From the IMG/VR virus record IMGVR_UViG_3300032087_006189: a stretch of DNA of 64,000 bases; one strand, 5' to 3'. This document shows positions 19,864 through 61,762 of this stretch, one piece after another. Within the stretch, counting starts at the first letter, position 1; the number at the start of each line of letters is the position of its first letter. Below the pieces are notes generated by a model. That model searched no databases and was not told the origin of the DNA. It was given only the letters and a program-made list of their open reading frames with translations. The DNA comes from a virus. The position numbers and the translations under genes are program-made.

Positions 19864-20109
19864 CTACTTCTTCTGCGCGCGGTCCACGAGCTTGCCAGCC
19901 TCTCGAGCAGACATGCCCAGTCGGACATTGCGGCCGTAGTGCTCTTTGTTCGTGTAGAGGCTGCTGAGCTGCTTGTATGCACGCTCACCAAGAACATCCC
20001 GACTCTTGAACAGTTCATCGAGGAGCTGATTCGTGTGTCGAACATTGAGTTTTTCGGCACCCTCAGAGAGCTGGCCATCTACACTGCGCTGAAAGAGCTC
20101 GGACATCAC
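19864..20109 (-). CDS. Hypothetical protein
   Basis: 81-aa coupled ORF. Confidence 0.55.
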   Translation of the reverse strand: MMSELFQRSVDGQLSEGAEKLNVRHTNQLLDELFKSRDVLGERAYKQLSSLYTNKEHYGRNVRLGMSAREAGKLVDRAQKK

Positions 20110-20345
20110 ATTCCCTCGTTTTTGCGGAATCTGCTCATAAACCCGGTCTGCTTGAGCAGCTGCTTTTGCTGGTACTCACGCTGACGGCGTGCCACCTTAC
20201 CCTCCCGGGCATCTTGCAGCAGGTCTTTACCGAGAGCACCAGCAGCAAGTCCGCCAGCCCCGATAAGCACTCCTTGCCCACGAGTAAGGGCAGCAATCTT
20301 GTGCATTTCGTCAAAGCAGGCAGCAAGCATCGCCGAGTGGATCAT
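20106..20345 (-). CDS. Small protein with a FDEMHKIAA leader and a glycine-rich hydrophobic segment
   Basis: MIHSAMLAACFDEMHKIAA followed by GVLIGAGGLAAGALG. Confidence 0.6.
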   Translation of the reverse strand: MIHSAMLAACFDEMHKIAALTRGQGVLIGAGGLAAGALGKDLLQDAREGKVARRQREYQQKQLLKQTGFMSRFRKNEGM

Positions 20346-20346
20346 A

Positions 20347-23300
20347 TCAACCTCGTTTTCCGATTCCGGAGGCTCCGGACAGAGCGACGGAACCCTGGAT
20401 TCGCCTCTTGTATAACTCTACACGATCGGCTCGTTCAAGTCTCGGATCCATCCTATCACCTTCTCCGCCATTCAGGTTGAATGTGGGAGTTCCAGATGAA
20501 GTGAGGCTACTGGACAGATCTATGTCTTTTAGATCAAGGTACTCGAGCTTTCCACCATACTCCGCAGACGAAGAGAAACATACGGCATTCGAGTGGTATC
20601 CACCGTAGTATTTTGGAGCGTCCCCGACAGGGGCCGGAGCAGCAGAGAATGACCTAGTCGTAGTGTCGTAGAAATAGGATTTCGAAGCCAAAACCTCGAG
20701 CTGATTTGCGATCGGCCTTCGAGTGAAGTCGTAGATGTAAGACAGCGTATCCTCAGTGATGCCGCCAGTTACTTGCGCTGCAGATTTCTTGGCGTATCGC
20801 AAAGCCACGACATCTACTGCCTCTTCGACGCTTCGCACGGAATATCTCGTATTGGTCACGAGGTCTGTGATCGCCGCCGTCCCAAAAAACGGACCATAAA
20901 TCTTCCCGGTAATGTTGTTTGCGCTGTAATCATCGGAGATCCAGATCGGCCGAATTGCCTCCTCTACCGGAAGCAGGGCCGATCTTCTTGATCTCTCTGA
21001 AATTACACCAACAAACCGATCTCCCGGAAGAACAGCTGGGATGACCAGGTCGTTGCCCACCATGTAGCCTACAAGGTCCATATAGTCGGCGAACTCAAAC
21101 TCCATGCCCGGCTCGGGAAAGTACTTCTTGATCTGAATCTCAACATCGCCTACATCACCAAGAAGCGTAAAGAAGGCAGGACTCCTAAAGTCTTTTACGA
21201 TGATCAAGACTTCTGAATTTCCGTTTTCCCACGTACCCGATGTGACGGTGCCACCCTGATATTCGACCTCTGGCAGGGTCAGCTCTTTCCGCGCTTCTTG
21301 GTCAACTGCTCGATCACCCAAGTCTCCTGTAAGTACCGATGCAGAGAGCGAGGGCTGAGGATCGGATGTAACTGTGAGCCCGTAAATCAGATCTGAGAAT
21401 GACTGAAAGCCCAAGGTAGCCGCCACGGCGTACCAAAAAAAGGCTTGATCTCCCGTCGCAGTACTGGCGATGTTTGAAGTAATTCCTCCGCCAATAGACA
21501 GGTCAGCATTTCCAGAGGCTTCTACTCTGGTAATAACTGCATCTTGAATTGTCAGGGTGCCGTCACTGCCAATCAGCTCAGAAAATATATCATCCGACTG
21601 GTCTCCAGTACGGTGTGAGCGCACCTGAGACAGACGCACCTGAGTCTGTGCTCCGCCCTGACTGATTGAGTGAGTGACAGACTGAACCATGCCTAGCTTG
21701 AATGATCTCGGAGAAGATGTAGGAGACGAAAGCGCATCCTCCATCGCAATCTCTGAAGATGTCATTGTCGAGTCGATGACCAGAGCGGGGAACCCGGGAA
21801 TGATGTGGGGGCTGATGCTCAGGCTTAGGGATGCGGATCTAGCTGCGTATCGACTCGTAAGAAGACGAAAATGCGCAACCTTTGAGGCATAGGTACCGAA
21901 AGTTTCTCTATCTTCGACTGTAGATGCGTCGGTAACAGGATTCTTGAGGCCGAAGTAGATGGCGTCAGTCATGCGCTCGAACTTCGGGACGATGCCACTG
22001 AATTTCTCGTGGTCGAAGATCAGATTGGATGTGGCCCGCTCCCCCAGTGCGGAAGCAAGGCTGGCCCCAGTCAGCTCCGGCGCAAAGAAGTACCGGTTCA
22101 GGATCGCGCTATCTGATGTCGCAAACTCGAATCCCACATCGAGTTGAAGACGGGAAGCTTCCCGGATCAATTCTCGGCTTGTAGAAAACGACTGGATCAT
22201 GTCAGGGAAGATGACATTGCTCTTTGGCGGCGGACAAAACCACACGTCTGGACGAACGATGTGCGTGTAGAGGGCTTCCCGACTCCCAGATACGCCTGTG
22301 CCTATGATCTCTGAGGCCTTGGTGGTTGTGACGTTGTTCTTTCCGACACCAAAGTCTTTAATTTGGACATGCACCGGGTCCCACCCTAGCCCCATGACTT
22401 CGACAAGCAGCGGGCACGTCGTGCCCCCAAAGAGCTTTTCTTTCCCCGCCCCGAGGTATGCGAGGTTGTGGGCTGCAGCCAACGTCTCTGCTTGTTGGTA
22501 GAAAAGGACATAGTCCTTGGCAATTTGAATGTCCAAGTCGAAGCGAGTCAGGCCGCCCGGGTACTTGTCGCCAGTCAGATGAAAGCGGACTTGGGTTTCA
22601 AAAGCTGCGAGATTGAGGGTAGAAGGATCTACGCGCGTAGTTGTCGCCAACGTGAAAAGGGCTCGGCGCAGGTTTTTGTACCAAGTACCGGTGGTGGTCG
22701 CGTCCTTAATGGGCGTGCCTGGCTTATGAAACTCATAGGGTAGGCCTACGCCCCACTTGGAGGGGTTTCCCTTTGACTCTGTGTCGTCCTTGTAGGAAAA
22801 CACGAAGTCCATCGCAAGCCCCCACTCATGGGCGATTGCCTTGTCATCGGTGCCGGGCTCTCTAAACGCGCTCGACAGATGGACAGTCGCCGGAGAGCTC
22901 AGACCCGTTGCTGCAAATGAGTTGAGGGCCGTGAGGAACGGAATGAGCTGCTCATGGAACTCCGCTTGAATGAAGAACTCTACTTTATCGCTGATCAAGA
23001 ACTCATCGTATTGAGCCCGTTGTTCCTCTGTAAGCTCCCCAATGAGCTGCTTTAGTGACGAAAACTTCGGGATGTCCCGATTCGGCTTACCGGGGCTGTC
23101 TGTGCTGTTGCCGGGGAGGTATCGGGCGCAGGGATTCGGCACCATCTCGTAGAACACATATTCAAACACGATCGAGGTGAGTTGGCGGAAGCTCATGACC
23201 TGGCCTCTGTCAGCCAGCCTCTTTGTCAGCCACTCTGAAAACTGCTTGACCTGAAACACCTGTGAAGCGGTCTCTCCAGAGTCCCCAACAACCGATTCCA

Positions 23301-29520: not shown

Positions 29521-29718
29521 TCACGTTAGCCTGCACGGACCCATTGGATCGGGCTTGAGGTTCTCAGAGAACTTCCCAGTTTCTTTAGCCACAATAAATG
29601 ACTTGATGATCGCGCGCTCGAACTTCGCCAGCGGCTCCGCACCCTGGCCGCGGAACCACTTCTCGAAGGCATCAATCTGGGCATCCGCGCGAGCCAAAAT
29701 TTCCTTTCTTTCGGTCAT
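29521..29718 (-). CDS. Small hypothetical protein
   Basis: MTERKEILARADAQIDAFEKWF...; GGAG SD; fills the intergenic gap. Confidence 0.45.
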   Translation of the reverse strand: MTERKEILARADAQIDAFEKWFRGQGAEPLAKFERAIIKSFIVAKETGKFSENLKPDPMGPCRLT

Positions 29719-29720
29719 AA
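29695..29720 (+). promoter_or_regulatory. Conserved phage promoter for the ligase gene
   Basis: caaa-N14-ggtcataa. Confidence 0.6.
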
Positions 29721-29737
29721 CAACTCCGGAGGACAAC

Positions 29738-31036: not shown

Positions 31037-31038
31037 GT

Positions 31039-31067
31039 AAGGGGGCCTTTCGGGGCCCCCTTCTTTT
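31039..31067 (+). terminator. Intrinsic terminator, probably bidirectional
   Basis: aagggggcc...ggcccccttctttt between convergent genes. Confidence 0.75.
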
Positions 31068-31443
31068 AGCCCCCAAAGATGAAAGCTTCCTTCGGGTGCC
31101 CCGCTTCTTCCTTCGCGGCCTCTGCGGCCTTGAACTCGATCTCCCGGAGTTCGGCCTGCTGTGCGCGCTCTTCTTCGGCCTGGGCACGGATGGTATCGAT
31201 CTCCTGTGACCGGGCGTCGATTGCCTCATCTGTGAGGACATCGCCGTCCACCAGCAGGGAGCGGATGGACGCAAGCGTGGTGTCGTGTGACTCCACCGCC
31301 TGTCCTATCACGGCGTCGTTGTCGAACAGACGACGGACTTCCATGATGAGAAGATCAATCCCTTCAGACTGAATCTTCTCCATCGTAGCGATTCTTTGCT
31401 CGAGCTCTTCTACTCTGGCTTCGAGTCTTTCAGTACGGGTCAT
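31066..31443 (-). CDS. Acidic coiled-coil hypothetical protein
   Basis: 125-aa ORF. Confidence 0.65.
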   Translation of the reverse strand: MTRTERLEARVEELEQRIATMEKIQSEGIDLLIMEVRRLFDNDAVIGQAVESHDTTLASIRSLLVDGDVLTDEAIDARSQEIDTIRAQAEEERAQQAELREIEFKAAEAAKEEAGHPKEAFIFGG

Positions 31444-31709: not shown

Positions 31710-31849
31710 GAAAAAACTCCTTTTTTCTGCCATAACACTATCGTGAAGAAACTGAGAAGTCTCCGGAGAAATCGAGGAAGTACTCACCGCACCCAGGGCG
31801 TACTGGACTGTCCGGGAAAGCTGGGTGTGCTTCTTTTGTTAAGTAATGC

Positions 31850-32401
31850 CTACCGACGTTTCCGCATGGCTGACAGGGACAGTCTAATGCTGTCCTTAAT
31901 GTCTTCGGGTGAAAAGCCGGCACCGAGACCGGCAATCCCGAGAGTCCTTCCTTTCCTACCCTTGAGATTAGGTCTATTCTTCACCGCCCCCTTGATCCCG
32001 CTAATAGTTAGTTTACTGCCAAAACCAGGTGTACTCTTCGGCGCTGCTGCGCCCTTCACCCACTTCTGGTTGTCCTTGTCCTTGGTCTTCTTCGGGCTCC
32101 ACTTGGCCTTGTCGGCCCAGTAGGCTGCGGACATCTTGCCTCGTGCGATGTTCTTTCGGTGACGGGACTTGAAGGCTTCGCGCTGACCGGCAGTCTGGTT
32201 CGTCTTGACGCCCTGCTGCCCGAAGCGGATGGTCTTCACCCGATCCCCCTCTTTAGCCACCACAATGTGCGACTTCGTGGGGTGTCCGGGGGTGCGCTTC
32301 ACCTGGTTGTATCCAGAGACCCCTGCTCGAGCGAGGCGAGGATCTTTGGACTGGGCGGCTTCTTTTTCCATCAAGAACTGCCGAAGAGCTTTGTAGTTCA
32401 T
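31850..32401 (-). CDS. K-x-A-A-linked modular basic protein (RFG...FKSRH...AYW phage domain)
   Basis: Leader MNYKALRQFLMEKEAA; domain TIRFGQQG...AFKSRH...SAAYWADKAKW; second linker KGAAA. Confidence 0.7.
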   Translation of the reverse strand: MNYKALRQFLMEKEAAQSKDPRLARAGVSGYNQVKRTPGHPTKSHIVVAKEGDRVKTIRFGQQGVKTNQTAGQREAFKSRHRKNIARGKMSAAYWADKAKWSPKKTKDKDNQKWVKGAAAPKSTPGFGSKLTISGIKGAVKNRPNLKGRKGRTLGIAGLGAGFSPEDIKDSIRLSLSAMRKRR

Positions 32402-33963
32402 TTCTTCGCCTTCAAGCTGGTGCCCTTGGCAAGCCCGTGGGAGCTGTACTGCTGGCCCTTGCGCGTTGCCTCTGACTTCTTTCGAGACGCGGCAGCAAGG
32501 CTCTTGCGTCCAGATTCGGTTTTCTTGAGTCTATCAGCCTTTCTTTCTGGGAGGTAGACCCCTTTACCCCCCGGACCTGGCTTGTCTCCACCCGACCAGT
32601 TCCACTTTTGCTTGGTCCACTTCTTCAGCGAGTTGTTCTTCGAAGTGGGCTTGGCGCCGGAGTAGCCGCCGCCCTTCTTCTTGTAGATCTGAGTCGCCAG
32701 CTGCATTGCGCGAGCAGAGTGCTTGCCGCCCATCTTGTTCTTGGCTTCGCGCTTCGCGGCTTCCCACTTGACTGGGTCGGTCTTGGTGGCGGTCGCAGCA
32801 GCCTCTTTGCCAATTCCATAATGGGAAGGAGGATGTACGGACCACTGTCGATAGTCGGGCATAGAGCGACCGCTTTCCAGTTTGACTGTAGGCAGGGCCT
32901 TCATGGTCTTCAGGGTCTCTCTTCGATACTTTCTTTTTTGCTGACTTGTCAGGCCCTTATTGTGGGAAAGGAACTCTTGGTTCTTCTTTCTGCCGGTGTC
33001 GAAGATGTCGTTGAACGCCGCAGACTCTTTGATCAAGTCTCCATCGGGGTGCTTGCGAACCTTGCCGGAGGCGATCAACGACTTGATTGCGGACTGCAAA
33101 TCGTCTTCCTTGACTCGCTTTTTGAGTGCGCCCATCCCTGCTGCGCCACCCTCAACACTGAGCGCCTTCAGGACTTGCGACTCGGTGGAGGCTGCCTGCT
33201 TTCGCATGCGGAGCTTCTTCTTGATGATGCCGGCTTGGATCTTGTCTGGAAGCTGAGACTGCTTGCCCTTGAGCGCAGGGTGCTTGTCCATGGACTTTGA
33301 GAAGGTTGCCGCAGATTCTTTGTCCATGAGCTCGTCCACGGGGCGGAAGAGGTAATCTTCTGCCATATCTCGTGAAAGCTGTTTCATTAGGGCGGGGTTT
33401 GCGAGTCTTCGCTTCTGGGCTGCCAAAGCCCTTTGATGCATCTGCTCGCCCCGCTCTCCACGCAGATCTTTATTCACCTTGTGCCCAGTAATGGCCCCCA
33501 GAAGTGCTCCAGCAGATCCAGTGACTGCCGGTGCATACCGCATCTTAGGGATGTACGACAGGGGGTACCCGAGACCGACCCCAAGAAGCCCTCCTCCAAG
33601 GATTCCAAGAGGCACCATACTGGGTGCGTGCTTTGGGTGCGTAGGATCTTTCAGTAGTCCCGCATGGATCTCTCTGGCAAGCTCATTTGGGTCATCCGTG
33701 ATGTGATCCTCTGCGATCCTGCCAGCTGCGTGGATGTCGTCGTCCTCATACTGAGACCAGTCTGCCGCCATCTTCTCTTCGTACTCACCGGGGTACGCAG
33801 TTCCCAGCGCACTGCCGAGCCCGCTGTAGGCGTTGTAGATCTTGTACTCGGCCCACGACGGAATCTGGAGCCCAGAGTCGATCTTGTCCTTGAGGTGCAG
33901 AGCTTGAGCAGCCATGCGCTCAAGAACCTTGCTCAGCATATGAGAGTCGTCGTACTCGCTCAT
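32398..33963 (-). CDS. K-x-A-A-linked polyprotein (~521 aa, about six modules including a Gly-zipper, a wHTH-like module and a C-terminal DUF5872-like module)
   Basis: The real start is ATG 33963 (ATGA overlap). Linkers are EKMAA, DKESAA, RKQAAS, IKESAA and GKEAAA. The last module reads HSARAMQLATQIYKKKGGGY...SLKKWTKQKW...YLP. Confidence 0.75.
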   Translation of the reverse strand: MSEYDDSHMLSKVLERMAAQALHLKDKIDSGLQIPSWAEYKIYNAYSGLGSALGTAYPGEYEEKMAADWSQYEDDDIHAAGRIAEDHITDDPNELAREIHAGLLKDPTHPKHAPSMVPLGILGGGLLGVGLGYPLSYIPKMRYAPAVTGSAGALLGAITGHKVNKDLRGERGEQMHQRALAAQKRRLANPALMKQLSRDMAEDYLFRPVDELMDKESAATFSKSMDKHPALKGKQSQLPDKIQAGIIKKKLRMRKQAASTESQVLKALSVEGGAAGMGALKKRVKEDDLQSAIKSLIASGKVRKHPDGDLIKESAAFNDIFDTGRKKNQEFLSHNKGLTSQQKRKYRRETLKTMKALPTVKLESGRSMPDYRQWSVHPPSHYGIGKEAAATATKTDPVKWEAAKREAKNKMGGKHSARAMQLATQIYKKKGGGYSGAKPTSKNNSLKKWTKQKWNWSGGDKPGPGGKGVYLPERKADRLKKTESGRKSLAAASRKKSEATRKGQQYSSHGLAKGTSLKAKK

Positions 33964-34469
33964 TTCTTTTCCCAGTCGAGGGACACGGAGTCCTTGGTAA
34001 TGGGGCCACCGGATGCCCAAGTATAGCAAGTACGGGCAGAATGGCACTTGAAGTGATGCATGTGGCAATAGCCGAGGTATCCGTCCTCTTGGACCATGCC
34101 GGGCATGCAGTCCTGCATTCGCGGAGAGATGTCGAAAGCCACGCAGTTCGAGCACTTCGACTTCTTGGCCACGGCAGGAGTCGTCTTCCAATGCGCGGCC
34201 AAGCGCCTCCAGTACCCTTGATCGGATAGATTCAGGGGTCCGTATTGGATGTGGTCAGCTTGGATCGACTTGTTGCGGTTCTTCGTATTGACCTTGAGAT
34301 CGCGGGTCGCAAGCGGGCACGCTGCAGCCTCTTTCGATCCACCGAGGTGGTAGCCACAGTTCGAGCACTTCTCCGCACCAGCATGGTTCATGTGCCCGCA
34401 CTTGGGACACTTGATCTTGCCGGCCGAGAGCTTGATCAGCTCAAGTGTGAATCCTGGGAGAAGTCTCAT
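33960..34469 (-). CDS. K-x-A-linked Cys-rich protein: zinc ribbon plus a Cys/His metal-binding domain
   Basis: Leader FTLELIKLSA; CPKC..CSNC; linker SKEAAA; then CSNCVAF...GYCHMHHFKC...TCYTW. Confidence 0.7.
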   Translation of the reverse strand: MRLLPGFTLELIKLSAGKIKCPKCGHMNHAGAEKCSNCGYHLGGSKEAAACPLATRDLKVNTKNRNKSIQADHIQYGPLNLSDQGYWRRLAAHWKTTPAVAKKSKCSNCVAFDISPRMQDCMPGMVQEDGYLGYCHMHHFKCHSARTCYTWASGGPITKDSVSLDWEKK

Positions 34470-37153
34470 TTTTTGTCCGTAAACTTCGTGCGATTGGTCA
34501 GGCGACTGACTGCGCGCAGATTAGCAGATCCATTGCCGCCGCCCTTGGAAATCGGCGTCTTGTGATCAGCTTCTCGAGGGTCGCCCTTCTTCAGGCCCAG
34601 TTTTCTGCGTGCCTGATTTCGCATGCTGCGGTTGGCTACTTGCTCTGGCTTTGCGTGGTACTGAGCGTACTCTCGGGCATAGTCTCTTTTGCGCTGACCG
34701 TATGGGGCTGCCGCGTATTTTGCGATTCCCTTTTCTATGAGCTCTCCTGACTCACTAAATCGCGCCGGCCGAACGATCTCCTTCATTTTTGCGCCGACGC
34801 CTGCTCCGTCCTCAAAGGGATCAAAGAGCTTTCTCAGGTCATTGGGCTCTAAGGTCTTTGCATCGATACCTCCCACTACGTTGCGGAAGTCGTGAGCACT
34901 CGGTATCGCGTGAATCTCTCCATTTACTCGGCGCATACCAACTGGACGATCTCCAAAGGCCCTTTGAATCTCTCTGTGATCGAGCTGTTGCCACGGATTA
35001 CTGGGATCGGCGTAGAACTTTTTATTCTGCACAAATCCAGCGTAGTTTGGGTTAGCTGCGTACCGCGCATTCCACTGCTTGAGGGCCTCATCTGTAGAGG
35101 GATCGTACGCTGACGGCGGCGGAGCCGCCGCACGAGAAGCTGCCGGAGGCGGTGCTGACGGCGGCGGAGCCGCCGCACGAGAAGCTGCCGGAGGCGGTGC
35201 TGACGGCGGCGGAGCCGCCGCACGCGCAGTAGAGCGTGCAGCCTTGGGAGCGGAGCCTGCAGCCGAAGTAGCAGCGTCAGCTGCTCCGGTTGCAGCACGG
35301 CGAGTTGCTTTGGGGGCTGCGGATGGGGTCAGCTTCTTGAGGAGCTTTGGTGCTTGGCTGATTCCCGCACCAAGAGTTCCTCCCAGCAAGGCTCCCTTTA
35401 GTCCTCCGTAGTCTGCACCGGAATCGTACCCCGCAGCTCCGCCGAGGATTGCTCCGATGCCCGCGCCAGCTGCGAGTGATGCGACCTTGACCCGCTCGCC
35501 GGGAGGCTTCATGTTCGGGCCCAGCACGGTCTTCACGACATGCTTTGATCCGATGTCGCCAATAACGACGTAGCCTTTTCCGCTTTTGAGGGGGACATGG
35601 TAGGTCTGCCCCTTGCGAAGATTCATCATCGGAATGCGCGCTCGAATCTTGGCGACTTCATAGGTCGCGCCTGGAGCTCGCTCTGCGATGCGGTCCTCTA
35701 CATGACCGGCTTCCTTTTCGATATCACTGGCCTGTTGGAATACTGCTCTCATTTGATTTGCCAGCTCCGTCTTTTCATCGGCTCGATCTTGAATCCACTG
35801 CTCAGTGGACTTGCCAGGATCCATGCCGAGAAATCCCTTGGGAAGAGAAGAATAGTACCGCTGCACATGAACCTTACGCTCTGCAGGCGGAAGATGGGCG
35901 TGACTCTGGTAGCGAACCCCGCGTCCGATCACCTGGTCGATCTTTGAGTTGTTCCAGTGGGGCTCAAGAACCTGAACCATCTTGGTGCCCTTGAGGTCCA
36001 GCCCCTCAGTTCCCGAACTCGAGACAAGCAGGACAGGGACCTTGCCCGAGTTGTACTCGTCTACCATCTGCGCCTTTTGCTTTGCGTTCAACTTCCCGGT
36101 CAGGGTGTTGAACTTGATCTTCTTCTTTTTTAGCGCGCGCTCGTAGGGCTTGAGCCCCGCCTCGATGTAGTTCGAGTAGACAACTCCGCGGAATCGGCGA
36201 TCTTTCTTCTTTGCCTCGTGCAGTCTGCGGGCTGCTTCCTGAATCTTGGGAGTGTGGAGCTCCTCCTCCTCTTCCGTCATAGTGTCGACATACGGCTTCG
36301 GAGAAAGCGACGCTTGCCTGCCCGCAGTCGTAAACGCATTGAGCATTCGCGACTCTTGCTTTGAGGGCGGCAACCCTGCGCGGATCTTGCGTCGCACATG
36401 CCACGGAGCGGCGCCCATCACCGCATTGTAGACTTCCTTCTGCTTTCCCGACATTGGGACATTGATGCGCTCGTCAATCTGCTCTGGGAAGTCCTCTGGG
36501 TTTGCCTCAGAATGGACATCGATCCTTCCCACGAGGGCATCGCGCAGCGCAGTGGCGTTCTGAAGGTCTTTGCGGATTCCGGGTTGAACACCTACCAACC
36601 GGTTCAACAAGCCAGGAGAAACCTTTGTCTCCCGGATAAACTTGCGCCGAAAAGACATGGTGTCGGCAGGAAGTACGGTCTCCCCTGCAGCGATGTTTGC
36701 AAGAGGCGCAATATCAAAGGGCTGGTTGTACAGCGCGGTTCCAGTCAAGAGTAGCCGCTTACCGGCCTGTTCGGACTCAGGCCTCAGCGTTCTTGTTGTC
36801 AAAGACGGGTTCCGAAGCCTGTGTGCTTCGTCGAGAACTAGAAAAGAGCCGGGCTCGATCGCTGCTCGCTCTTCCTTGGTTTTGCGGCGAACTGCTTTCT
36901 CGTAGGAGCTGATTCTGGCTTCGACCTCTCCCTTGACGTGCTTTTTGATCTCCTTTTCATAGTTCTTCGTTAGCGATGCCGGAGTGATGATCTCCATCGG
37001 AGCACCACTTCTGACACCCGCAGCAATAGAGGTCAGCGTCTTTCCAGCCCCTACGCGGTGAGCAACAATGACGCCGTCGCTGTTCTCCAGCTTGCGGAGG
37101 ACCCGCTCTTGATGCGGCTTGAGCTTGGCGGTGACTTTGGGAGATTTAGACAT
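34466..37153 (-). CDS. SNF2-like SF2 helicase fused through K-x-A linkers to small domains and a C-terminal HNH endonuclease
   Basis: Helicase motifs LKPHQ, GAGKT, LDEAH, LLTGT, GTEGLDL, EPHWN and QVIGRGVR. HNH is EADHKTPISKGGGNGSANLRAVSRLTNR. The start is probably MSKSPK at 37153. Confidence 0.85.
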   Translation of the reverse strand: MSKSPKVTAKLKPHQERVLRKLENSDGVIVAHRVGAGKTLTSIAAGVRSGAPMEIITPASLTKNYEKEIKKHVKGEVEARISSYEKAVRRKTKEERAAIEPGSFLVLDEAHRLRNPSLTTRTLRPESEQAGKRLLLTGTALYNQPFDIAPLANIAAGETVLPADTMSFRRKFIRETKVSPGLLNRLVGVQPGIRKDLQNATALRDALVGRIDVHSEANPEDFPEQIDERINVPMSGKQKEVYNAVMGAAPWHVRRKIRAGLPPSKQESRMLNAFTTAGRQASLSPKPYVDTMTEEEEELHTPKIQEAARRLHEAKKKDRRFRGVVYSNYIEAGLKPYERALKKKKIKFNTLTGKLNAKQKAQMVDEYNSGKVPVLLVSSSGTEGLDLKGTKMVQVLEPHWNNSKIDQVIGRGVRYQSHAHLPPAERKVHVQRYYSSLPKGFLGMDPGKSTEQWIQDRADEKTELANQMRAVFQQASDIEKEAGHVEDRIAERAPGATYEVAKIRARIPMMNLRKGQTYHVPLKSGKGYVVIGDIGSKHVVKTVLGPNMKPPGERVKVASLAAGAGIGAILGGAAGYDSGADYGGLKGALLGGTLGAGISQAPKLLKKLTPSAAPKATRRAATGAADAATSAAGSAPKAARSTARAAAPPPSAPPPAASRAAAPPPSAPPPAASRAAAPPPSAYDPSTDEALKQWNARYAANPNYAGFVQNKKFYADPSNPWQQLDHREIQRAFGDRPVGMRRVNGEIHAIPSAHDFRNVVGGIDAKTLEPNDLRKLFDPFEDGAGVGAKMKEIVRPARFSESGELIEKGIAKYAAAPYGQRKRDYAREYAQYHAKPEQVANRSMRNQARRKLGLKKGDPREADHKTPISKGGGNGSANLRAVSRLTNRTKFTDKK
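35109..35224. repeat. 45-bp tandem repeat (~2.6 copies) encoding an RAAAPPPSAPPPAAS linker
   Basis: gctgacggcggcggagccgccgcacgagaagctgccggaggcggt repeats exactly at 35109 and 35154 and partially at 35199. Confidence 0.9.
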
Positions 37154-39068
37154 CCAAGCCCCACAAAACCATCGCCTCTTTTTTGGCATCTTCGTAGGTA
37201 CGGGACTTGGCTGACGTCTCGCTTACGTCAGCCAGATCCGTCTTCCCTTTGAGCCTGCCGATAGTGGGGCGCTGTCCGAGAGCCTTGCCCAGGTGCTTCA
37301 CATGCGCGTTTCTATCCGACACAAGGAAGTCAGCGGGGGCCGTCATTGACCATCTGCCGCCCCGAGTGTGAGTAGCGTGACCTTGCAGGGCATACGCGGC
37401 CCCAATCAGGTTGCTGCAGGTCCACTTGTCCGTCTTTTTGATCTCCTTGCCATGGTCCAGCTTCTTGTCGAAGTACTTCGGCATGAAGATCGAGAAGCCC
37501 TTTTTGGCCAAGAACTTGTGAGACTCGTAAGGGGCTCCCACCTGCGTCTTGGCAAATGTTGCAGCCGCGCGACGAGCCTTGGTGCTGACTTTTGGACGAA
37601 CGACCACTGCCCCGTCCAAATCCCGTAGAGATCTCTTGAGAGATCGCCTTACGACGCCCCCCTGCAAAGCCTCGACTACCTGGCCCTTTCCGACGTAGAT
37701 GGCAGAGTGGGTGTAGGATCCTTGCGCAGCGGGAGAAGCCTTGCGGAAGAACTGTTCCTTCATCCGCTTGTGAAGAGGGGCACCTGAGTCCTTCGAATAC
37801 TGCTCGGGAGCCATAGCAGTGAGGATCACGTCTCCTACCTGCATGCCCTTTGAACTTGCTTCTCTGGCGGCCATCGCCTCTTTTTTGATGTCCTCGTAAG
37901 TACGGATTGATCGGAAGTTTGGAGACTTCTCCTCAATCTCTTTCCGGTACTTCAGATCATCGAAGTGAGTAGTCAGTCCCATCTTGAGATCTGGAAGCAT
38001 GGGCGTGCCTCGCTCTCGCGATCGCTTGCCCACCCGAAACATGCGAGTCGCCATTGGGGTGTCCAGGTACAGGACATCATCCGCCTGTGCCAACAGCTTA
38101 GGATACCTCAGTGCCCCTCTTGGGTATCCCTCCACAAGGACCCGCTTACCCTTTGCGCGCATCTTCAGTGCGAGAGCTTCTCTGCGGTTGCGAATCTTCT
38201 CGCGCTCGGCTTTGGGCGGCTTGACATACTGTCCGTTGACGACCCCTCCCGTGTCTGTCCCGATCAGGACATCAAACTCTCCGCTGTCGACCAGCTTCTT
38301 GGCCATCGTGCTTTTGCCCGCGCCGGCTCCACCAGTGATGAAAGTCAGTCGCGGAGCTTTGTCGGATGCCTCTTTTTTGAGCTCTCTTTGCGCCAGAATC
38401 TCAATGCCGGGGTATTTAGCGGCTACAGCTTTACGGACCTGTGATTTCTCCCCCGGAGTACCGTGCTGGGCTACTCGAGCTAGGGCATTGCGAGCATGAG
38501 ATCGGTCATGGATCGGATAACGCCTACCGGGCAGAGCGAAGTTGCCTTCGGAGATCTGATTACGTCCTCTGGTTGTTAGCTCTGCCGCTTCTTTCTTGAG
38601 CTCTCCGTAGGAGGCAGTCTTGTTCATCTGCTTGAACTGTCGAATGTGTTTGCAGTCCACGACTTCTCCCGGTTTCGCGACCGAACGCTTGTAGCGCCAG
38701 TCGTTGCAGGTGCATCCCAGCCGGTCTTTGCCGCGCAGCTTGACGATGCTGTAACTCTTGGACCCGCTCTGGACGGTGCCGACCTTCTTTCCGGTCTGCA
38801 GGCGATTCATGTTGTCCGCGTGCATGACCAGCTTGGCATCAGAGCGAGAGTCACTTCCCAGCTGCTTCACAAAGGACTTGCGCGAAGCATTGTTGAGGAA
38901 CTGGTCCCAGTCCTTCTTCTTTGCGGTGTGAAAGCTCTCGACCCGCGCACCGGCACGCTTCTTTTCTCTCGACTGAAAGAAGTTCTGAAGTCGGCCTCTG
39001 ATTCCAGAAACAAAAGAGGATGGCGAAAACTCGCCATCCTTTTCAAACTCTGGATAGAAGTGGTACAT
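37146..39068 (-). CDS. Four-module polyprotein: SWIM zinc finger, DUF6582-like domain, P-loop kinase, and permuted NlpC/P60 (YiiX/C92) amidase
   Basis: CTCNDW...CKH; NFALPGRRYPIHDRSHARNALARV; ITGGAGAGKST...VEGYPR; GDVIL...THSAIYVG...VGAPY...CSNLI. Modules are separated by KKEA[A/S/M]. Confidence 0.8.
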   Translation of the reverse strand: MYHFYPEFEKDGEFSPSSFVSGIRGRLQNFFQSREKKRAGARVESFHTAKKKDWDQFLNNASRKSFVKQLGSDSRSDAKLVMHADNMNRLQTGKKVGTVQSGSKSYSIVKLRGKDRLGCTCNDWRYKRSVAKPGEVVDCKHIRQFKQMNKTASYGELKKEAAELTTRGRNQISEGNFALPGRRYPIHDRSHARNALARVAQHGTPGEKSQVRKAVAAKYPGIEILAQRELKKEASDKAPRLTFITGGAGAGKSTMAKKLVDSGEFDVLIGTDTGGVVNGQYVKPPKAEREKIRNRREALALKMRAKGKRVLVEGYPRGALRYPKLLAQADDVLYLDTPMATRMFRVGKRSRERGTPMLPDLKMGLTTHFDDLKYRKEIEEKSPNFRSIRTYEDIKKEAMAAREASSKGMQVGDVILTAMAPEQYSKDSGAPLHKRMKEQFFRKASPAAQGSYTHSAIYVGKGQVVEALQGGVVRRSLKRSLRDLDGAVVVRPKVSTKARRAAATFAKTQVGAPYESHKFLAKKGFSIFMPKYFDKKLDHGKEIKKTDKWTCSNLIGAAYALQGHATHTRGGRWSMTAPADFLVSDRNAHVKHLGKALGQRPTIGRLKGKTDLADVSETSAKSRTYEDAKKEAMVLWGLDV

Positions 39069-47063: not shown

Positions 47064-47141
47064 AGAGATACGCCTTGCTCTTGGCCTACTGCTCCATGCT
47101 ACCCCCCTTCAAACCTATGGGGCAGTAGGCCAAGGCTTTGC

Positions 47142-47215: not shown

Positions 47216-47231
47216 CTCTTTTGGAGAGAGA

Positions 47232-47378
47232 ATGTACCAAGTAACTGTAGGAAATAAGGTCTTCTTTTCAGAAGACTACGATTGGAGCCTGCCGAAGACG
47301 CTGGCAGCAGCACGAGAATGGGCGGCAAAGAACGCGCCCCAGCAAGAGGTCAAGGTTGGCTTGATCTCCTTCTTGTAG
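47232..47378 (+). CDS. Small hypothetical protein (48 aa) inside the tRNA cluster
   Basis: GGAG SD; MYQVTVGNKVFFSEDYDWSLPKTLAAAREWAAKNAP.... Confidence 0.5.
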   Translation: MYQVTVGNKVFFSEDYDWSLPKTLAAAREWAAKNAPQQEVKVGLISFL

Positions 47379-47384
47379 TGACCT

Positions 47385-47461
47385 GCCTCGATAGCTCAGT
47401 TGGATAGAGCACCGGCCTTCTAAGCCGATGGTCCCAGGTTCGAATCCTGGTCGAGGCGCCA
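47385..47461 (+). tRNA. trnR: tRNA-Arg(UCU)
   Basis: Cloverleaf; anticodon loop ct-tct-aa; CCA encoded. Confidence 0.92.
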
Positions 47462-57678: not shown

Positions 57679-58890
57679 CTATTTAGCTGCCTGTTGGTCC
57701 TTGTAGCGCTTGTACGCAAGTCCTGCTCCGATTCCGCCAAGCCCAAGGGCTCCACCAATCAGCAGCTTCTTACTGATCGGCGACAAGGTTCTTGACGAGG
57801 CTGCCGGAATGGATGCCGGAATGGTTCGAGGGGCCGAGGAAGAGTACTCGATTGTCCCAAGGTTGTCCGCGATCCGCGCCGCATCTGCGGCCACGCTTCG
57901 TCGCGCACGACTACGGGCACTCTCCCCCAGTATCGGCCTCAGTCCGCCTTGAGCGCGCTGCTTCCGCAGCTTATCGACAAAAGTTTCCTGCCGAACCTTT
58001 CCGCCTCGGACTTTCTTCTTTTGTCGGGAGCCGGGCTTTCCATCGCCGAAGGATTCGCGAACGCGCCGCTTGTCTGAATCCATCAGTTTAAAGATGTCGT
58101 CGGACTCCGATGCATTTGGGTAATATCCGCCGGTACCGTACATCTTTCCTTCGGCGGCCAAACGATTAAAGCGTTCTTGATCGTCAACAATGAAGTCTAC
58201 AACCTTCATGTTGCCGCTCGGAGTAATCATCATATTGCCGGGGTGGGCTACTCCGTACCTATGGAGGTAGACATCTCGAAGGTTGTAACCTCCGATGCCG
58301 TTATTCACCAGTTCTCTATTTGCACGTTCCTGGGCCTCCCGCGCAAAATTATCTGCTAGGAAGCTATCATTTCGAGTCCACTTCGGATTGTACGTTTGAG
58401 CGTTGTCGAGATCTTGTCCTTGGACATACTCCTTGAGCATGTAGCCATAGCCGCCGCGGTTTTTTCGGGCCTCCCCCTTGGTGTAGATCTTGCCAAAAGC
58501 GGAGTCCCCCTCCAAGGCCTCTCCTACGCGAACCTTCCGATCTTCTTGACCAGGGACGTAGAGCTTGCCTTGGCGATCATAGGTCTTTCGGATTGCGACT
58601 TGATCTGGCGCATCCTTTGCTCCAATGACCAAGTCTGCGATGCCTTCGGCGCCGCCCGCTATCCTCCCGCGACCCTTGCGTCGGCCCTTTCCTACTTCTC
58701 CGGGATTGACCAGAAAGGTCCCCTCTTCGGAGTTCTTCAAGACACCCGCGGCTTGGAGCTGCTGGGCAAGCTCATTGGCTTCGTCGACCTTTCCCTCTCG
58801 CAAGAGCTTGCGCAGCTCCTTGATCTGGCGAGGAGCTGCAAGTTTGCGCATTTCGGAGGCATAAGCTGTTTTGAGGAGGCCGTATTTCAT
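57679..58890 (-). CDS. Protein-kinase-like enzyme with a SEMRKLAA leader and a C-terminal transmembrane anchor
   Basis: Gly loop IAGGAEG, VAIRK, KEYVQG, D...HPGN, VVDF; C-terminus LLIGGALGLGGIGAGLAYKRYK. Start is probably MKYGLLK. Confidence 0.7.
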   Translation of the reverse strand: MKYGLLKTAYASEMRKLAAPRQIKELRKLLREGKVDEANELAQQLQAAGVLKNSEEGTFLVNPGEVGKGRRKGRGRIAGGAEGIADLVIGAKDAPDQVAIRKTYDRQGKLYVPGQEDRKVRVGEALEGDSAFGKIYTKGEARKNRGGYGYMLKEYVQGQDLDNAQTYNPKWTRNDSFLADNFAREAQERANRELVNNGIGGYNLRDVYLHRYGVAHPGNMMITPSGNMKVVDFIVDDQERFNRLAAEGKMYGTGGYYPNASESDDIFKLMDSDKRRVRESFGDGKPGSRQKKKVRGGKVRQETFVDKLRKQRAQGGLRPILGESARSRARRSVAADAARIADNLGTIEYSSSAPRTIPASIPAASSRTLSPISKKLLIGGALGLGGIGAGLAYKRYKDQQAAK

Positions 58891-59148
58891 AGGTCTTCCA
58901 GGAGGAGTGAATGGACGATTGGTACCCATTGGTCGTGATTGTATACCTTCACGACATCCCCAGCAATCCAAAGGACATCCGCAGAGAGCGGACCATGGGG
59001 ATCTTCTACATTCAGGAAATCGACGACTTTACAGAAGTTGCTGAAATCCTATCACCAGACATGGTTGAGCGCTTTGGCGGCAATCCAAATATCAAGAAGG
59101 TGACTGTATCTCGAAACAGGATGGTTCCCTTCTGGAGGGGCGACGCTC

Positions 59149-59174
59149 TAAAAGTAACGCAAAATCCGTCATAA
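59149..59174 (+). promoter_or_regulatory. Conserved phage promoter
   Basis: taaa-N14-cgtcataa followed by tatagatagcc. Confidence 0.7.
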
Positions 59175-59210
59175 TATAGATAGCCAAGGACAATACTAAG
59201 GAGGTGCCTC

Positions 59211-60242: not shown

Positions 60243-60266
60243 TGCGGGCCCCGAAAGGGGCCCGCA
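60243..60266 (+). terminator. GNRA-capped hairpin terminator
   Basis: tgcgggcccc-gaaa-ggggcccgca. Confidence 0.6.
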
Positions 60267-60359
60267 CTCCGCAGGCGACTGCCTTAGCTCTACATAGTAG
60301 ATGGAAAAAGGGGCATTAATCGGGCATAACTGCATTGCCACATAAATATAGGAGGCAGT

Positions 60360-60905
60360 ATGCAGAGAGCACCGTATGGGTACGACCCAACGCAGAAGGT
60401 GCGGGAGTTTCGAGGTCGGGTTCGAGAGGGAAATCTCCTTCTCGCGCAGCACATTGTAGTTCCCATCAAAGAGGGGGGACTGGCCTACGGCAGCGTATCT
60501 ACGCAGTTCCTATCTCTTTACCCGGGAGTTGAGATTCCAGACCTGGAGTTCCGGCAGGCACGCACAATCGTCCTTGATCGAGAGCACGGCAGGACGGTGA
60601 CCTTCGTGTGCTTTTGGAACGACAACGTAAAGTACGACGCAAACCACATCTCAATCTGTGCGAATCGAGCAATCGTCTCGTTTAGCACCGCCTGTATGAT
60701 GGATCCTGAGCGGTTCAACATCAGGTGGCTTGATGAAGACCGGACCCTGTCTCTTCCCCTGTTCAAGGGATGCGAGGGGAGCCCACACAATGTGGCCTGC
60801 CTCGAGGTTGAGATCTGCGATACGCAGGAAAGACTGGATCGCGGCGTCATCTGTCCGTGCGAAGTCGAGATTGTAGTGCGGAACAAGGAAAGGGTTCCCT
60901 CTTAG
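60360..60905 (+). CDS. Hypothetical protein
   Basis: AGGAGG SD; promoter gaaa-N14-gggcataa at 60304-60329. Confidence 0.6.
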   Translation: MQRAPYGYDPTQKVREFRGRVREGNLLLAQHIVVPIKEGGLAYGSVSTQFLSLYPGVEIPDLEFRQARTIVLDREHGRTVTFVCFWNDNVKYDANHISICANRAIVSFSTACMMDPERFNIRWLDEDRTLSLPLFKGCEGSPHNVACLEVEICDTQERLDRGVICPCEVEIVVRNKERVPS

Positions 60906-61762
60906 AGGTAGTCCACCCCTTCAAGGTTCCGCACAAACCGCTCCTCCACTTCCTGTGGGCCCACTGGTTGCGCTCCCGCAAGAAACCTTTGGGCCCACGC
61001 CTTGGCCTTTCTGGCCTTCTCGGTGCCGCCCAAGGTCTCGTCGAGCATCTCCGGGAACTCGTCTGCAGGGATGTCCTCAATAGACTCCGCGGCGTCCAGA
61101 AGCCCGATTTGGCGCATGCGTGCTTCCAGCATCGCCGCGCGCCGTGCTTCCTGTCGGGCAGGGCTTTGTGCCCATTCGATTCCGTGCTCGTCCACCTGTC
61201 GCAGCAGGGTGGGCAGATTCGGTCTGCGCGATGGATTCAAGATTGCAATGTCGCCCTCTCCCAGTTGGTAATCCCCTCGAACACGGGCCAACATGGGTGC
61301 TCTTTTACCTGTCGCTTGGTGAACTCCGCCCAAGATGAGCTTCTGCTGGTCATCCTTGCTCAGCCTTTCGAGATTTGCGAAGATTCCTTCTGAGTCTCGA
61401 CTTGCAAAGAATCGATCTCCTGCGTCCTCGTACCCGAACCCTCTCCCGAAATAGACGTCTTTGAGTCCTGGGGGCGTGTACTGGGCGCGCTCTCCAACAC
61501 TTCCCGGGATCGCACCGTCTCGCAGGATCTTTTCCATTGCGGGGAGGCCGCCGTAGGTCGTGTCGTGAGTCAAGAAGCCGCGGTCTGTTACATATTTACT
61601 GAGAAAAGAGTCGGTTTCCGGTATTGCATCTCGGTACCCCTTGAGCAATCGACGGAACTGCGGGACCGCATCTGATTCACTGACCAGAGTCCGAAGTTTT
61701 TTGGGAATCGCTGCGAGCTTCTCAAGCTCATCTACAAAAAACTGGAATGTCGCGGTGTCCAT
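60902..61762 (-). CDS. ADP-ribosyltransferase-like protein with a VDELEKLAA leader
   Basis: Leader MDTATFQFFVDELEKLAA; LTHDT...ILRDGAI...VYFGRG matches the HxT...ILxxG...VYF ART-fold pattern. Confidence 0.5.
   Translation of the reverse strand: MDTATFQFFVDELEKLAAIPKKLRTLVSESDAVPQFRRLLKGYRDAIPETDSFLSKYVTDRGFLTHDTTYGGLPAMEKILRDGAIPGSVGERAQYTPPGLKDVYFGRGFGYEDAGDRFFASRDSEGIFANLERLSKDDQQKLILGGVHQATGKRAPMLARVRGDYQLGEGDIAILNPSRRPNLPTLLRQVDEHGIEWAQSPARQEARRAAMLEARMRQIGLLDAAESIEDIPADEFPEMLDETLGGTEKARKAKAWAQRFLAGAQPVGPQEVEERFVRNLEGVDYL

Follow-up and report, generated by a model that had tools for sequence, protein, structure and literature searches.

The maturational protease of herpesviruses, assemblin, cuts (V/L/I)-x-A|S at its R and M sites. 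In 2017 Iyer et al. reportedly described the polyvalent proteins that are found in phages and in conjugative elements. According to published summaries for phage T4, a capsid targeting sequence of about 10 residues, MKTYQEFIAE, is carried by the internal proteins IPI-III and Alt, and the prohead protease gp21 removes it (Mullaney & Black 1996, cited in PMC10052503; PMC9026906). The prohead proteases gp175 of phiKZ and gp245 of SPN3US cut after A-x-E, with propeptides of 20-254 residues, and the ejection proteins of these phages are cut multiple times (PMC10052503, PMC5694885).

The phage described here is large and uncultured, and has one cultured distant relative, Salmonella phage Arash. In purified Arash virions, orthologues of the SNF2 helicase, sigma factor and RNA polymerase encoded in the window (the whole analysed stretch of 64,000 nucleotides) are abundant, with 38 peptides for helicase gp217 (PMC10585845 Table 2), 24 for sigma gp10 and 128 + 40 for the RNA polymerase, and a homologue of the protease treated below is also present (PMC10585845). 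This proteome comprises 116 of 252 proteins, surely with contaminants, and its coverage figures are blind to N-termini (PMC10585845).

Distribution of the N-terminal leader

One short N-terminal peptide was found to be common to several otherwise unrelated proteins, of which four with a strong copy are encoded in the window and a fifth beside the portal gene. The leader reads aromatic-x-x-E-[L/M]-x-K-[L/I]-[A/S]-[A/G] and is modestly amphipathic (hydrophobic moment 0.25-0.45); its final position is variable (A, G or S, in relative G002 also E or D). The genes concerned, beginning with the four strong cases, are the following:

20289..20345, minus strand, leader MIHSAMLAACFDEMHKIAA, followed by a Gly-zipper hydrophobic segment; gene 20106-20345, 79 aa
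61709..61762, minus strand, leader MDTATFQFFVDELEKLAA; gene 60902-61762, 286 aa
58834..58890, minus strand, leader MKYGLLKTAYASEMRKLAA; gene 57679-58890, 403 aa, protein-kinase-like, with a Gly-rich hydrophobic C-terminal segment
34422..34469, minus strand, leader MRLLPGFTLELIKLSA; gene 33960-34469, 169 aa, zinc ribbon
32354..32401, minus strand, short-form leader MNYKALRQFLMEKEAA (K-E-A-A) of the 183-aa gene 31850-32401
32398..33963, minus strand, protein of about 521 aa from the coupled operon, which has a Gly-zipper segment and, internally, six K-x-[AS]-A sites
34466..37189, minus strand, SNF2 helicase of 907 aa, with KEAG (492), KVAS (568) and KYAA (824) at module borders
37146..39068, minus strand, modular protein of 640 aa, with a degenerate start MYHFYPEFEKDG without the Ala pair
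19031..19861, minus strand, sigma factor of 276 aa, start MAVKDRLLKIAA, with the K-I-A-A part of the motif only

The first-pass annotation had listed seven similar leaders. All seven N-termini read as quoted and all seven genes lie on the minus strand, but only four leaders are strong (genes at 20345, 61762, 58890 and 34469), those at 32401, 39068 and 19861 being weaker. Its description of these genes as lying amid plus-strand ones holds only loosely; the region of 45-64 kb carries genes on both strands.

Six-frame translation of the whole window gave four matches to E-[LMIV]-x-K-[LIV]-[AS]-A, the core of the leader. All are on the minus strand, 4-9 residues behind the ATG that opens a long ORF; of all six-frame positions, only 6.7% lie equally near such a start. 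By composition 0.08 matches would be expected, and 200 shuffles gave a mean of 0.05 and a maximum of 1, statistics which are optimistic since the pattern was picked after inspection of the data. An HMM of the leader, as proposed in the first-pass annotation, was built and run on the genome and its relatives. The score list was bimodal: outside a scaffold-like protein, every match of at least 7.8 bits lay 1-8 residues from a Met, or was G001 28137, where the leader stands 3 residues into the ORF and no upstream Met was seen. The nearest leader-like sequences away from N-termini were those in the scaffold-like protein. The scan of Arash, L041 and L042 with the long-leader HMM gave no matches.

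Base identity among the leaders is only 41-59%, and they are not DNA duplicates, because their codons differ. The protein bodies behind them are mutually unrelated (zinc ribbon, kinase-like protein, small membrane protein), and in many of them a Gly-zipper hydrophobic segment follows directly after the site. The leaders are kept by the orthologues in two relatives, G001 and G002. For the gene at 20345 (18.9 bits, GAGG ribosome site), these are MISRAVFQGFFAELDKMAS in G001 and MIDPNISAFFFDELTKEAL in G002. For the 286-aa gene at 61762 (17.3 bits, AGAGGG ribosome site 5 nt upstream), no orthologue was found among five relatives, and only weak ADP-ribosyltransferase-like structural leads were obtained for its product. 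The 403-aa protein encoded at 58890 (14.3 bits) had protein kinases as 10 of 10 Atlas structural neighbours (TM 0.38-0.46), and its G001 orthologue carries ...WRAFAVETTKLAAPRQ. The zinc-ribbon gene at 34469 (14.5 bits; MRLLTGFMLELVKLSA in the G001 orthologue) has a second site, KEAA, at residue 46 and overlaps the upstream gene by ATGA.

The start codons at 34469, 32401, 39068 and 19861 are supported by a four-base ATGA overlap or direct abutment with the upstream gene, and those at 20345 and 61762 by GAGG-type ribosome sites. Use of the upstream starts at 61813 or 58971 would place the motif 17 or 27 residues further in.

Among the weaker cases, the 183-aa gene at 32401 starts in an ATGA overlap and matches phrog_7595 and phrog_220 ('minor head protein and DNA pilot'); its short-form leader was unmatched by the long-leader HMM. 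The orthologues of the 640-aa protein start with MPLPFYVDFSKEAG in G001 and MDHFYPEFEKEAD in G002, reading FYVDFSKEAG and FYPEFEKEAD. At the place of K-I-A-A, the sigma orthologues have KLAE in G001 and KIAA in G002, and the N-terminal extension with this element is missing from the Arash orthologue.

The fifth copy lies outside the window, in the portal-neighbour gene, which begins MNTLVFRAFSEEMTKLSA. In the family of this gene F9, E12 and K15 are invariant down to 37% identity, and the linker after the leader varies in length and sequence. The leader is conserved at the protein level, and selection acts on the peptide itself. The same portal-neighbour leader forms an internal junction (..LQATKTAG..) in a G001 fusion protein, and the leader of a stand-alone 94-aa gene of G001 is internal in the J-domain fusion of this phage (FHFFFDEMNKLAA, 17.7 bits). 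N-terminal and internal copies are equivalent by sequence, and these two fusions show that the leader needs no free N-terminus. A site for a protease or for docking accounts for this more readily than an address label confined to the N-terminus.

The putative head protease and the short motif

The protease candidate has 560 aa in G001 and is located upstream of a scaffold-like repeat protein, with the capsid gene a few genes on; the orthologue of this phage itself (648 aa, in L048) is also situated upstream of scaffold-like and capsid genes. Its sequence gave no Pfam or PDB sequence matches, and matched the PHROG 'head maturation protease' at E 1e-3 only. The modelled N-domain of the G001 protein (pLDDT 88) has T4 gp21 as its best match (5jbl; Z 8.6, rmsd 2.9, 133 of 165 residues), with VZV protease at Z 7.1, HCMV protease at Z 5.8 and unrelated entries at 5.4 or less. 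In a Foldseek search with this domain, the first 24 rows were all gp21 or herpes proteases. By this model, the head module of the phage encodes a protein with the gp21/assemblin fold (MEROPS S77/S21-like), its predicted prohead protease. H133, H138 and S194, near-invariant in 25-55 homologues with a His-to-Ser spacing of 56-61, are candidate catalytic residues. In 25 homologues K-x-A-S is kept exactly where low-confidence linkers meet folded domains, as expected of putative self-processing sites.

No shared (L/I)-x-E pattern was found at the leader ends; leaders and linkers end in K-x-A-[S/A/G], and the leader is an extended form of this shorter motif. For G001, 43 sites of K-x-A-[ASG] were counted in head-module proteins against 16.6 expected (2.6-fold, P 5e-8), with no enrichment in tail proteins (5 vs 8) or in the rest (21 vs 20). 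Two proteins in the head module of this phage have 11 sites each, and in poorly conserved head proteins the motif reaches 11-12 copies, the number differing between relatives. The capsid protein carries K-T-A-A at residues 23-26, which is the end of its N-terminal arm, and the Arash capsid protein has K-E-A-G at the homologous place. Some proteins start M-[D/N]-K-[I/L/T]-A-A-Y; a cut there would remove about 5 residues, which is odd for a propeptide. K-x-A-[S/A/G] is probably the motif cut by the head protease. The proposal in the first-pass annotation that the leaders are cleavable thereby gains indirect support, from an enrichment of the leader-end motif restricted to head-module proteins and from its position beside the protease domains and at the end of the capsid arm.

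The short K-x-A motif also stands at the module borders of the operon 31850-39068. Five genes with translational coupling, encoding 169-907 aa each, make up this operon and divide its modules among them. The domains encoded there include an SNF2 helicase, a Zeta-like P-loop kinase, a papain-like amidase and a DNA-pilot-like module (phrog_220, phrog_62, phrog_11801). In the 640-aa protein, K-x-A sites at residues 150, 159, 232, 396 and 630 coincide with the borders of modules that are DUF6582-like, P-loop kinase/Zeta-like and C92 amidase. The first Met of the protein of about 521 aa is ORF residue 77, and this gene has an ATGA overlap with the zinc-ribbon gene.

Possible roles of the leader

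Since the leader end matches the motif that the head protease probably cuts, the leader-bearing proteins are probably cargo which, as in phage T4, is loaded into the head and trimmed. The reading that is favoured here, with slightly better than even confidence, is that the leaders are N-terminal propeptides ending in a head-protease site and carried by such cargo. The T4 capsid targeting/gp21 system and the SPN3US/phiKZ propeptides are a known precedent for it (PMC10052503). A head-loading role of the leader is plausible. The leader would form one amphipathic helix whose last four residues, K-x-A-[S/A/G], would be the cutting motif of the phage's own head-maturation serine protease. Leader-bearing proteins would enter the assembling prohead together with the scaffold-like core, and so would the modular proteins of the operon, with the short motif at each module border. 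The protease would trim these cargo proteins or split them into separate modules, and the processed cargo would exit the head with the DNA at infection. The motif is confined to head and putative cargo proteins; cutting at K-x-A, recruitment by the helix upstream of the site and injection of the products are steps that we infer.

The first-pass suggestion that the leader marks the injected proteome finds partial support from outside. Arash virions hold the helicase, sigma and RNA polymerase orthologues (PMC10585845), but these virion proteins are without the long leader. Because the Arash helicase and sigma factor lack it, packaging in Arash is independent of the long leader. The fused RNA polymerase of the present phage has no leader.

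Among the alternatives, the one that survives best, though unlikely, is that the leader is a protease site only. The head protease would cut leaders and linkers without any recruitment, and the proteins would enter the head via other contacts; the propeptide could hold back the activity of enzymatic or membrane-active (Gly-zipper) modules up to maturation, or be a relic of a polyprotein junction. The interchange of leaders with internal junctions, the packaging by Arash of an orthologous helicase and sigma factor that have no long leader, and the Gly-zipper segments right behind the site in many leader proteins all agree with this. However, in the stretch 3-7 residues before the Lys, F, E and the hydrophobic positions are invariant or nearly so and are missing from most internal K-[T/E/V]-A-S sites, a constraint that exceeds the need of a short site, and the presence of the closest non-N-terminal leader-like sequences in the scaffold-like protein hints at a common docking role.

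It is rather improbable that the leader is an uncleaved interaction or membrane helix which docks to the portal, scaffold, a chaperone or the membrane, with K-x-A-A serving in helix packing and not being scissile. Modest amphipathicity would suit such a helix, as would the J-domain protein of the head module, a J-domain being fused directly upstream of one leader, and the M-D-K-I-A-A-Y starts, which are too short for a useful propeptide. Against it stand the location of the short motif in low-confidence linkers at domain borders of the protease and the modular proteins, its up to 11-12 repeats in poorly conserved head proteins, varying in number between relatives, and its place where the capsid N-arm ends; cleavage sites in T4, phiKZ and SPN3US follow this pattern (PMC10052503). 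Chance likeness, or an N-terminal domain shared via gene duplication without common function, is hardly credible even for a short motif defined post hoc with three weak examples among the seven listed, as the four matches seen against about 0.08 expected are all N-terminal, the motif recurs outside the window and in relatives, and the leaders differ in codon usage and precede unrelated protein bodies.

The favoured reading of cleavable leaders on head-loaded cargo can be widened, tentatively and with less than even confidence, to a clade of phages of ~150-200 kb, taking in hundreds of metagenomic relatives and the distant phage Arash. A protease of the T4/herpes fold would there follow a Lys-x-Ala|Ser rule, replacing the 'cut after Glu' of every studied large phage, and the helix F-x-x-E-L-x-K-L-A-A would be a portable tag, usable N-terminally or between modules, that loads a changeable arsenal into the capsid and lets cleavage release each part of it. 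This arsenal would consist of a kinase, a possible ADP-ribosyltransferase, the SNF2 helicase, the Zeta-like kinase, the amidase and membrane-active Gly-zipper proteins; the sigma factor of the virion RNA polymerase may belong to it too. If this is true, virion cargo could be predicted from sequence alone across hundreds of metagenomic genomes, the shuffling of cargo modules would be explained, junctions and leaders being one element, and the leader would be a candidate tag for laboratory loading of proteins into phage heads.

Comparison with known systems

The cargo operon has a domain set similar to that of polyvalent proteins, but its modules are divided among five coupled genes and separated by the repeated K-x-A motif. 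A polyvalent protein joins many conflict-related domains in one giant polypeptide, in most cases together with a MuF domain or another that anchors it to the head. An assignment to the polyvalent-protein class was rejected, the domains being split over genes of 169-907 aa and the MuF domain having no match within the window.

Like phiKZ and SPN3US, the phage has several copies of a putative protease motif in many head and putative ejection proteins, a predicted self-processing protease and a putative virion RNA polymerase. It belongs to another lineage, with a fused beta-beta' polymerase and a sigma factor; its predicted cleavage rule is without Glu at P1, and its conserved short leader differs from the mostly long, unrelated propeptides of those phages.

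As in the T4 system, unrelated proteins begin with a short helix that ends in a (here putative) head-protease motif, and the protease has the same fold (Z 8.6 to gp21). Enzymes are among the putative cargo of both; the 286-aa protein has weak ADP-ribosyltransferase-like leads, and T4 Alt is such an enzyme. The motif is K-x-A-[S/A/G] here and (L/I)-x-E in T4, the leader here also serves as an internal junction, and many putative cargo proteins are multi-module or have Gly-zipper segments. If true, this would be a second, sequence-distinct case of the T4 principle of an address peptide plus a protease site, and would extend it to a large, almost unstudied phage clade with Arash as its one cultured relative.

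The phage protease shares with herpesvirus assemblin the fold (Z 7.1 for VZV, 5.8 for HCMV), two small residues, Ala and then Ser or Ala, where the phage cut is predicted, and sites that flank the protease domain in a protein of protease-linker-C-domain type. Assemblin differs in having an aliphatic residue, where the phage motif has Lys, three positions before the Ser, and in being the enzyme of an animal virus. If the proposed rule is true, it would be nearer to that of assemblin (Ala then Ser) than to that of T4, and would bear on the evolution of specificity within one protease fold common to phages and herpesviruses.

Phage context and the N-terminal leader

The phage represented in the window is a large, very divergent myovirus known from metagenomes only. 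With 6 kb of the window as query, blastn gave no match among GenBank phages, and an exact 40-mer from the window gave none in IMG/VR. The identical strain is present on several Logan and JGI contigs, which overlap with the window at 100% identity; overlapping contigs were joined into a 104-kb stretch (Wext, window positions -40033 to 64000), and the head module was obtained separately as contig L048. Relatives in IMG/VR showed 80-87% portal identity. Two of them were taken whole, namely G001 (164.6 kb), whose synteny with the window spans positions 97-45379 with a nucleotide identity of 65-77%, and G002 (131 kb).

Gene order in the window
45-39 kb, minus strand: small genes
39068-31850, minus strand: translationally coupled operon of modular proteins
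29-0 kb and beyond, minus strand: tape-measure-like, hub, 79-aa gene, sigma factor and tail/fibre genes

Beyond the window follow, in order, a replication module, proteins of 364, 264 and 352 aa, the portal and an RNA polymerase of 2117 aa in which beta and beta' are fused. At 46821-47461 on the plus strand, between the late block and a mixed-strand region, five tRNA genes are clustered (Thr-TGT, Ser-TGA, Gln-TTG, Met-CAT, Arg-TCT). An ATP-dependent DNA ligase gene (29555-31036, plus strand; phrog_114, E 2e-21) is situated within the late structural block on the opposite strand.

The first-pass annotation had attributed a shared N-terminal leader (aromatic-x-x-E-hydrophobic-x-K-x-A-A) to seven minus-strand genes, named here by their start positions, and had interpreted it as a putative cleavable capsid-targeting tag. 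All seven N-termini read as quoted. The list holds for the four strong cases (20345, 34469, 58890 and 61762); of the other three, 32401 retains K-E-A-A only, 19861 K-I-A-A only, and 39068 has lost the Ala pair in the window phage (KEAG in G001, KEAD in G002). The start codons are supported by an ATGA overlap with the preceding gene or by immediate adjacency to it (34469, 32401, 39068, 19861), or by good ribosome sites (20345, 61762).

In a six-frame translation of the window, the core pattern E-[LMIV]-x-K-[LIV]-[AS]-A matched exactly these four strong genes, each time on the minus strand and 4-9 residues past the ATG of a long ORF, a proximity shared by only 6.7% of six-frame positions. From composition 0.08 matches were expected, and none of 200 shuffles gave four. 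This pattern was picked post hoc, and replication was therefore sought outside the window and in relatives. The gene upstream of the portal (portal-neighbour gene), outside the window, begins with MNTLVFRAFSEEMTKLSA. In orthologues of the relatives the leader is kept with substitutions: CFDEMHKIAA becomes FFAELDKMAS and FFFDELTKEAL (G001 and G002), FTLELIKLSA becomes FMLELVKLSA, and YASEMRKLAA becomes FAVETTKLAA. Additional N-terminal leaders are found on other genes of G001 and G002 (MRETVWSFFLDEMIKLSS, MDYDQMYFFRDELEKIAV). When a profile built from 15 leaders was scanned against all six-frame ORFs of six genomes/contigs, the scores were sharply two-humped: matches of at least 7.8 bits were N-terminal in a real gene or lay within a scaffold-like protein, and below 7.8 bits only noise in random frames was seen. 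The random scatter of matches that had been named beforehand as speaking against the leader was thus not observed.

Even among members of the portal-neighbour family as little as 37% identical, F9, E12 and K15 do not vary, with the following 25 residues differing in length and sequence. The five leaders of the window phage have only 41-59% of bases in common and encode the conserved residues by different codons. Taken together, this indicates selection at the peptide level, and the differing codons rule out recent DNA duplication or a DNA/RNA element as the source of the likeness. A secretion signal or lipobox is likewise ruled out, as there is neither a hydrophobic core nor a Cys, and so is a leader of the Prp/L27 type (FFA|S) as in Firmicute phages, which has another motif and another protease.

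The short motif and module junctions

A shorter motif, K-x-A-[S/A/G], is pervasive, and the leader is its extended form. The bare form K-x-[AS]-[ASG] showed no N-terminal excess when the first 35 residues were compared with the rest of the protein, because internal sites are themselves enriched; the N-terminal claim thus concerns the long motif only. In the 640-aa protein, sites at 150/159, 232, 396 and 630 bracket DUF6582-like, P-loop/Zeta-like and C92 amidase modules (Pfam, PHROGs), and in the SNF2 protein sites 492 and 824 come after the helicase and before a phrog_4590 module. Seven sites occur in each of two G001 proteins, of 446 aa (P 3e-8) and 501 aa (P 7e-8). Over the entire head module of G001 there are 43 sites versus 16.6 expected (P 5e-8), compared with 5 versus 8 in tail proteins and 21 versus 20 in all remaining proteins. 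In the head module of the window phage, 11 sites each are present in the scaffold-like repeat protein (468 aa) and in a protein of 482 aa. Head proteins are likewise saturated in more distant relatives, namely L041 and L042, whose protease is 43-48% identical, and Salmonella phage Arash, which is in culture and whose protease is 30% identical. The number of sites varies among relatives, within otherwise poorly conserved proteins. In the capsid protein, recognized by a weak PHROG match and by its annotation in Arash, K-T-A-A occupies residues 23-26, and the N-terminal arm of the Arash protein has K-E-A-G at the homologous position. The capsid protein has 1059 homologues; among the 120 listed, this N-terminus is too conserved to reveal whether the motif as such is under selection.

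Members of one small-protein family begin with M-[D/N]-K-[I/L/T]-A-A-Y-x-x-[LV]-L-x-x-H-P-L-W-x-K-[TS]-A, that is, with K-x-A-A at the extreme N-terminus and often a second site about 15 residues on; several members then have a Gly-zipper segment.

Small-protein family in the two relatives
G001 21120-21785, 28160-28714 and 58763-59182: members of the M-[D/N]-K family
G002 108219-108677, 113734-114177 and 118331-118660: members of the M-[D/N]-K family

In Arash (OQ632216), the endolysin gp39 (30659-31168) begins with MFKLSAAG and an unannotated ORF (172528-172995, minus strand) with MMEKVASVF; these starts may be further short N-terminal forms or may be due to chance.

The leader also occurs at internal positions. 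The 264-aa and 352-aa genes of the window phage correspond to a single protein in G001, where the leader position is the internal junction ...FTASLQATKTAG... A stand-alone 94-aa gene of G001 begins with a leader; in the window phage its counterpart, with that leader (FHFFFDEMNKLAA, 17.7 bits) and the body, follows a Gly-zipper plus J-domain module within one fused protein. Since N-terminal and internal copies are interchangeable, whatever reads the motif needs no free N-terminus. This equivalence fits a protease site or a docking site, and would explain the shuffling of modules.

The fusion protein has 293 aa (L048:7155-8036, plus strand, outside the window) and consists of Gly-zipper segments and a DnaJ J-domain (PF00226, precomputed), then the internal leader motif and the body homologous to the 94-aa gene; to meet a J-domain among phage head genes is unusual. 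Close relatives differ strongly in the operon of modular, putative cargo proteins (window 31837-39068, G001 126458-132985): it comprises about 6.7 kb in the window phage versus 2.8 kb in G001, 3.7 kb of G001 are absent from the window phage, and modules are gained or lost at K-x-A junctions. In G002 the N-terminal module of the 640-aa protein and the SNF2 helicase form one 958-aa protein.

As to the proposed cargo itself, the strong leader proteins of 79, 286 and 403 aa had no match in Pfam or PHROGs, and the fourth, of 169 aa, showed zinc-ribbon matches just under the Pfam cut-offs plus a weak PHROG match. The 403-aa protein may be protein-kinase-like, ten of ten structural neighbours in the Atlas being kinases with TM up to 0.46, which is to be taken as a lead only. 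ADP-ribosyltransferase types (Arr, DarT, PARP; TM 0.33-0.38, poor model) are weak leads for the 286-aa protein, whose gene has no orthologue among five relatives. In many leader proteins a Gly-zipper hydrophobic segment follows soon past the site; such segments would suit membrane-inserting ejection proteins.

Predicted head protease and virion content

The protease candidate, 560 aa in G001, is encoded downstream of the terminase and upstream of the scaffold-like repeat protein, with the capsid protein (648 aa in the window phage) a few genes further. At least 140 homologues were found; its match to the PHROG 'head maturation protease' is weak (E 1e-3), and searches of Pfam and of PDB sequences gave none. 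A first full-length model (pLDDT 67) gave weak matches only (Z up to 4.3). When the N-domain was folded alone with 55 homologues (pLDDT 88), the best match among 48,161 chains was T4 gp21 (Z 8.6, rmsd 2.9 A, 133 of 165 residues), followed by the VZV (Z 7.1) and HCMV (Z 5.8) proteases, with unrelated folds at 5.4 or less. The first 24 Foldseek rows were gp21 or herpesvirus proteases throughout, at marginal E-values (0.03-0.3). The catalytic pair may be among the near-invariant residues H133, H138 and S194. In the alignment, K-x-A-S is kept at three places where the flanking linkers vary: immediately before the start of the fold (GLxKTAS|GEHLP), immediately after its end and immediately before the C-terminal domain. 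All three are low-confidence linkers of the full-length model and look like the self-processing sites of gp21 and herpes assemblin.

Arash, though distant, is a true relative: it has orthologues, 25-38% identical, of the window phage's portal, sigma, SNF2 helicase and RNA polymerase (the last split in Arash), and both phages have the order tape-measure-like, hub, small gene, sigma. In LC-MS of purified Arash particles the RNA polymerase beta subunit was most abundant (128 peptides; beta' 40), and the SNF2 helicase gp217 (38 peptides, 1148 spectra), sigma gp10 (24 peptides), the protease homologue gp222 and all K-x-A-rich head proteins were detected (PMC10585845). That proteome includes 116 of 252 proteins, obvious cytoplasmic enzymes among them, and its coverage figures do not resolve N-termini (PMC10585845). 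With serious caveats, it supports the idea that helicase and sigma of this lineage would travel in the virion. Helicase and sigma of Arash are without the long leader, and the leader-profile scan of Arash gave no match; the virion proteins gp206, gp100 and gp224 instead begin directly with M-x-K-x-[AS]-S.

The 2117-aa gene (L010:12870-19223, plus strand, about window -30900 to -37250; G001 59192-65551) lies directly after the portal and joins beta-like and beta'-like domains of multisubunit RNA polymerase (Pfam Rpb2_6, Rpb1_2, Rpb1_3, Rpb1_5). In Arash this polymerase is split into gp206 and gp216, which both rank near the top of the virion proteins by abundance. These data and the sigma gene of the tail operon (19031-19861) suggest a virion-borne sigma-dependent polymerase.

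Proposed processing and comparison with known systems

Late in infection, the leader-bearing and modular proteins would co-assemble with a scaffold-like core. The closest leader-like sequences outside N-termini, according to the leader profile, are located within the scaffold-like protein, so that the leader may mimic a scaffold contact. The gene of this protein (G001 43116; G002 126756; L048:5749-7155) encodes tandem repeats LFEK[AT]AAAEG[IV][DN]LD...YEHYVENVLP, and an internal Met stands right before the leader-like GRHMARAY[AVM]DE[IM][DE]K[IE]A[AG]; translation might start internally at this Met and yield a nested product that carries the leader. The gp21/assemblin-fold protease would then cut K-x-A|[S/A/G], and, judging from the distribution of the motif, this may remove leaders, split modules, chop the scaffold and trim the capsid protein. 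The products would remain in the head and exit with the DNA, in partial agreement with the Arash data. Taken alone, K-x-A-[S/A/G] is probably the cleavage site of the head protease. The mechanism as a whole, from co-assembly with the scaffold to cutting and exit with the DNA, is somewhat favoured, and a recruiting role of the leader helix is a tentative proposal with slightly less than an even chance. The original claim was confirmed in part as an observation and supported in part as an interpretation.

In this reading the leader and protease of the window phage work like the capsid targeting sequence and gp21 of T4, and are likewise similar to the propeptide processing of phiKZ/SPN3US (PMC10052503). 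The defining rule of these systems, (L/I)-x-E in T4 and A-x-E in phiKZ/SPN3US, is not followed by K-x-A-[S/A/G], and for this reason the system is not a strict member of the T4/phiKZ type. Herpes assemblin cleaves at (V/L/I)-x-A|S, which the small-residue pair at the predicted cut resembles. The window adds an extended conserved leader and its equivalence with internal junctions, a link to a polyvalent-protein-like operon, and a connection to a relative in culture whose virion proteome has been published.
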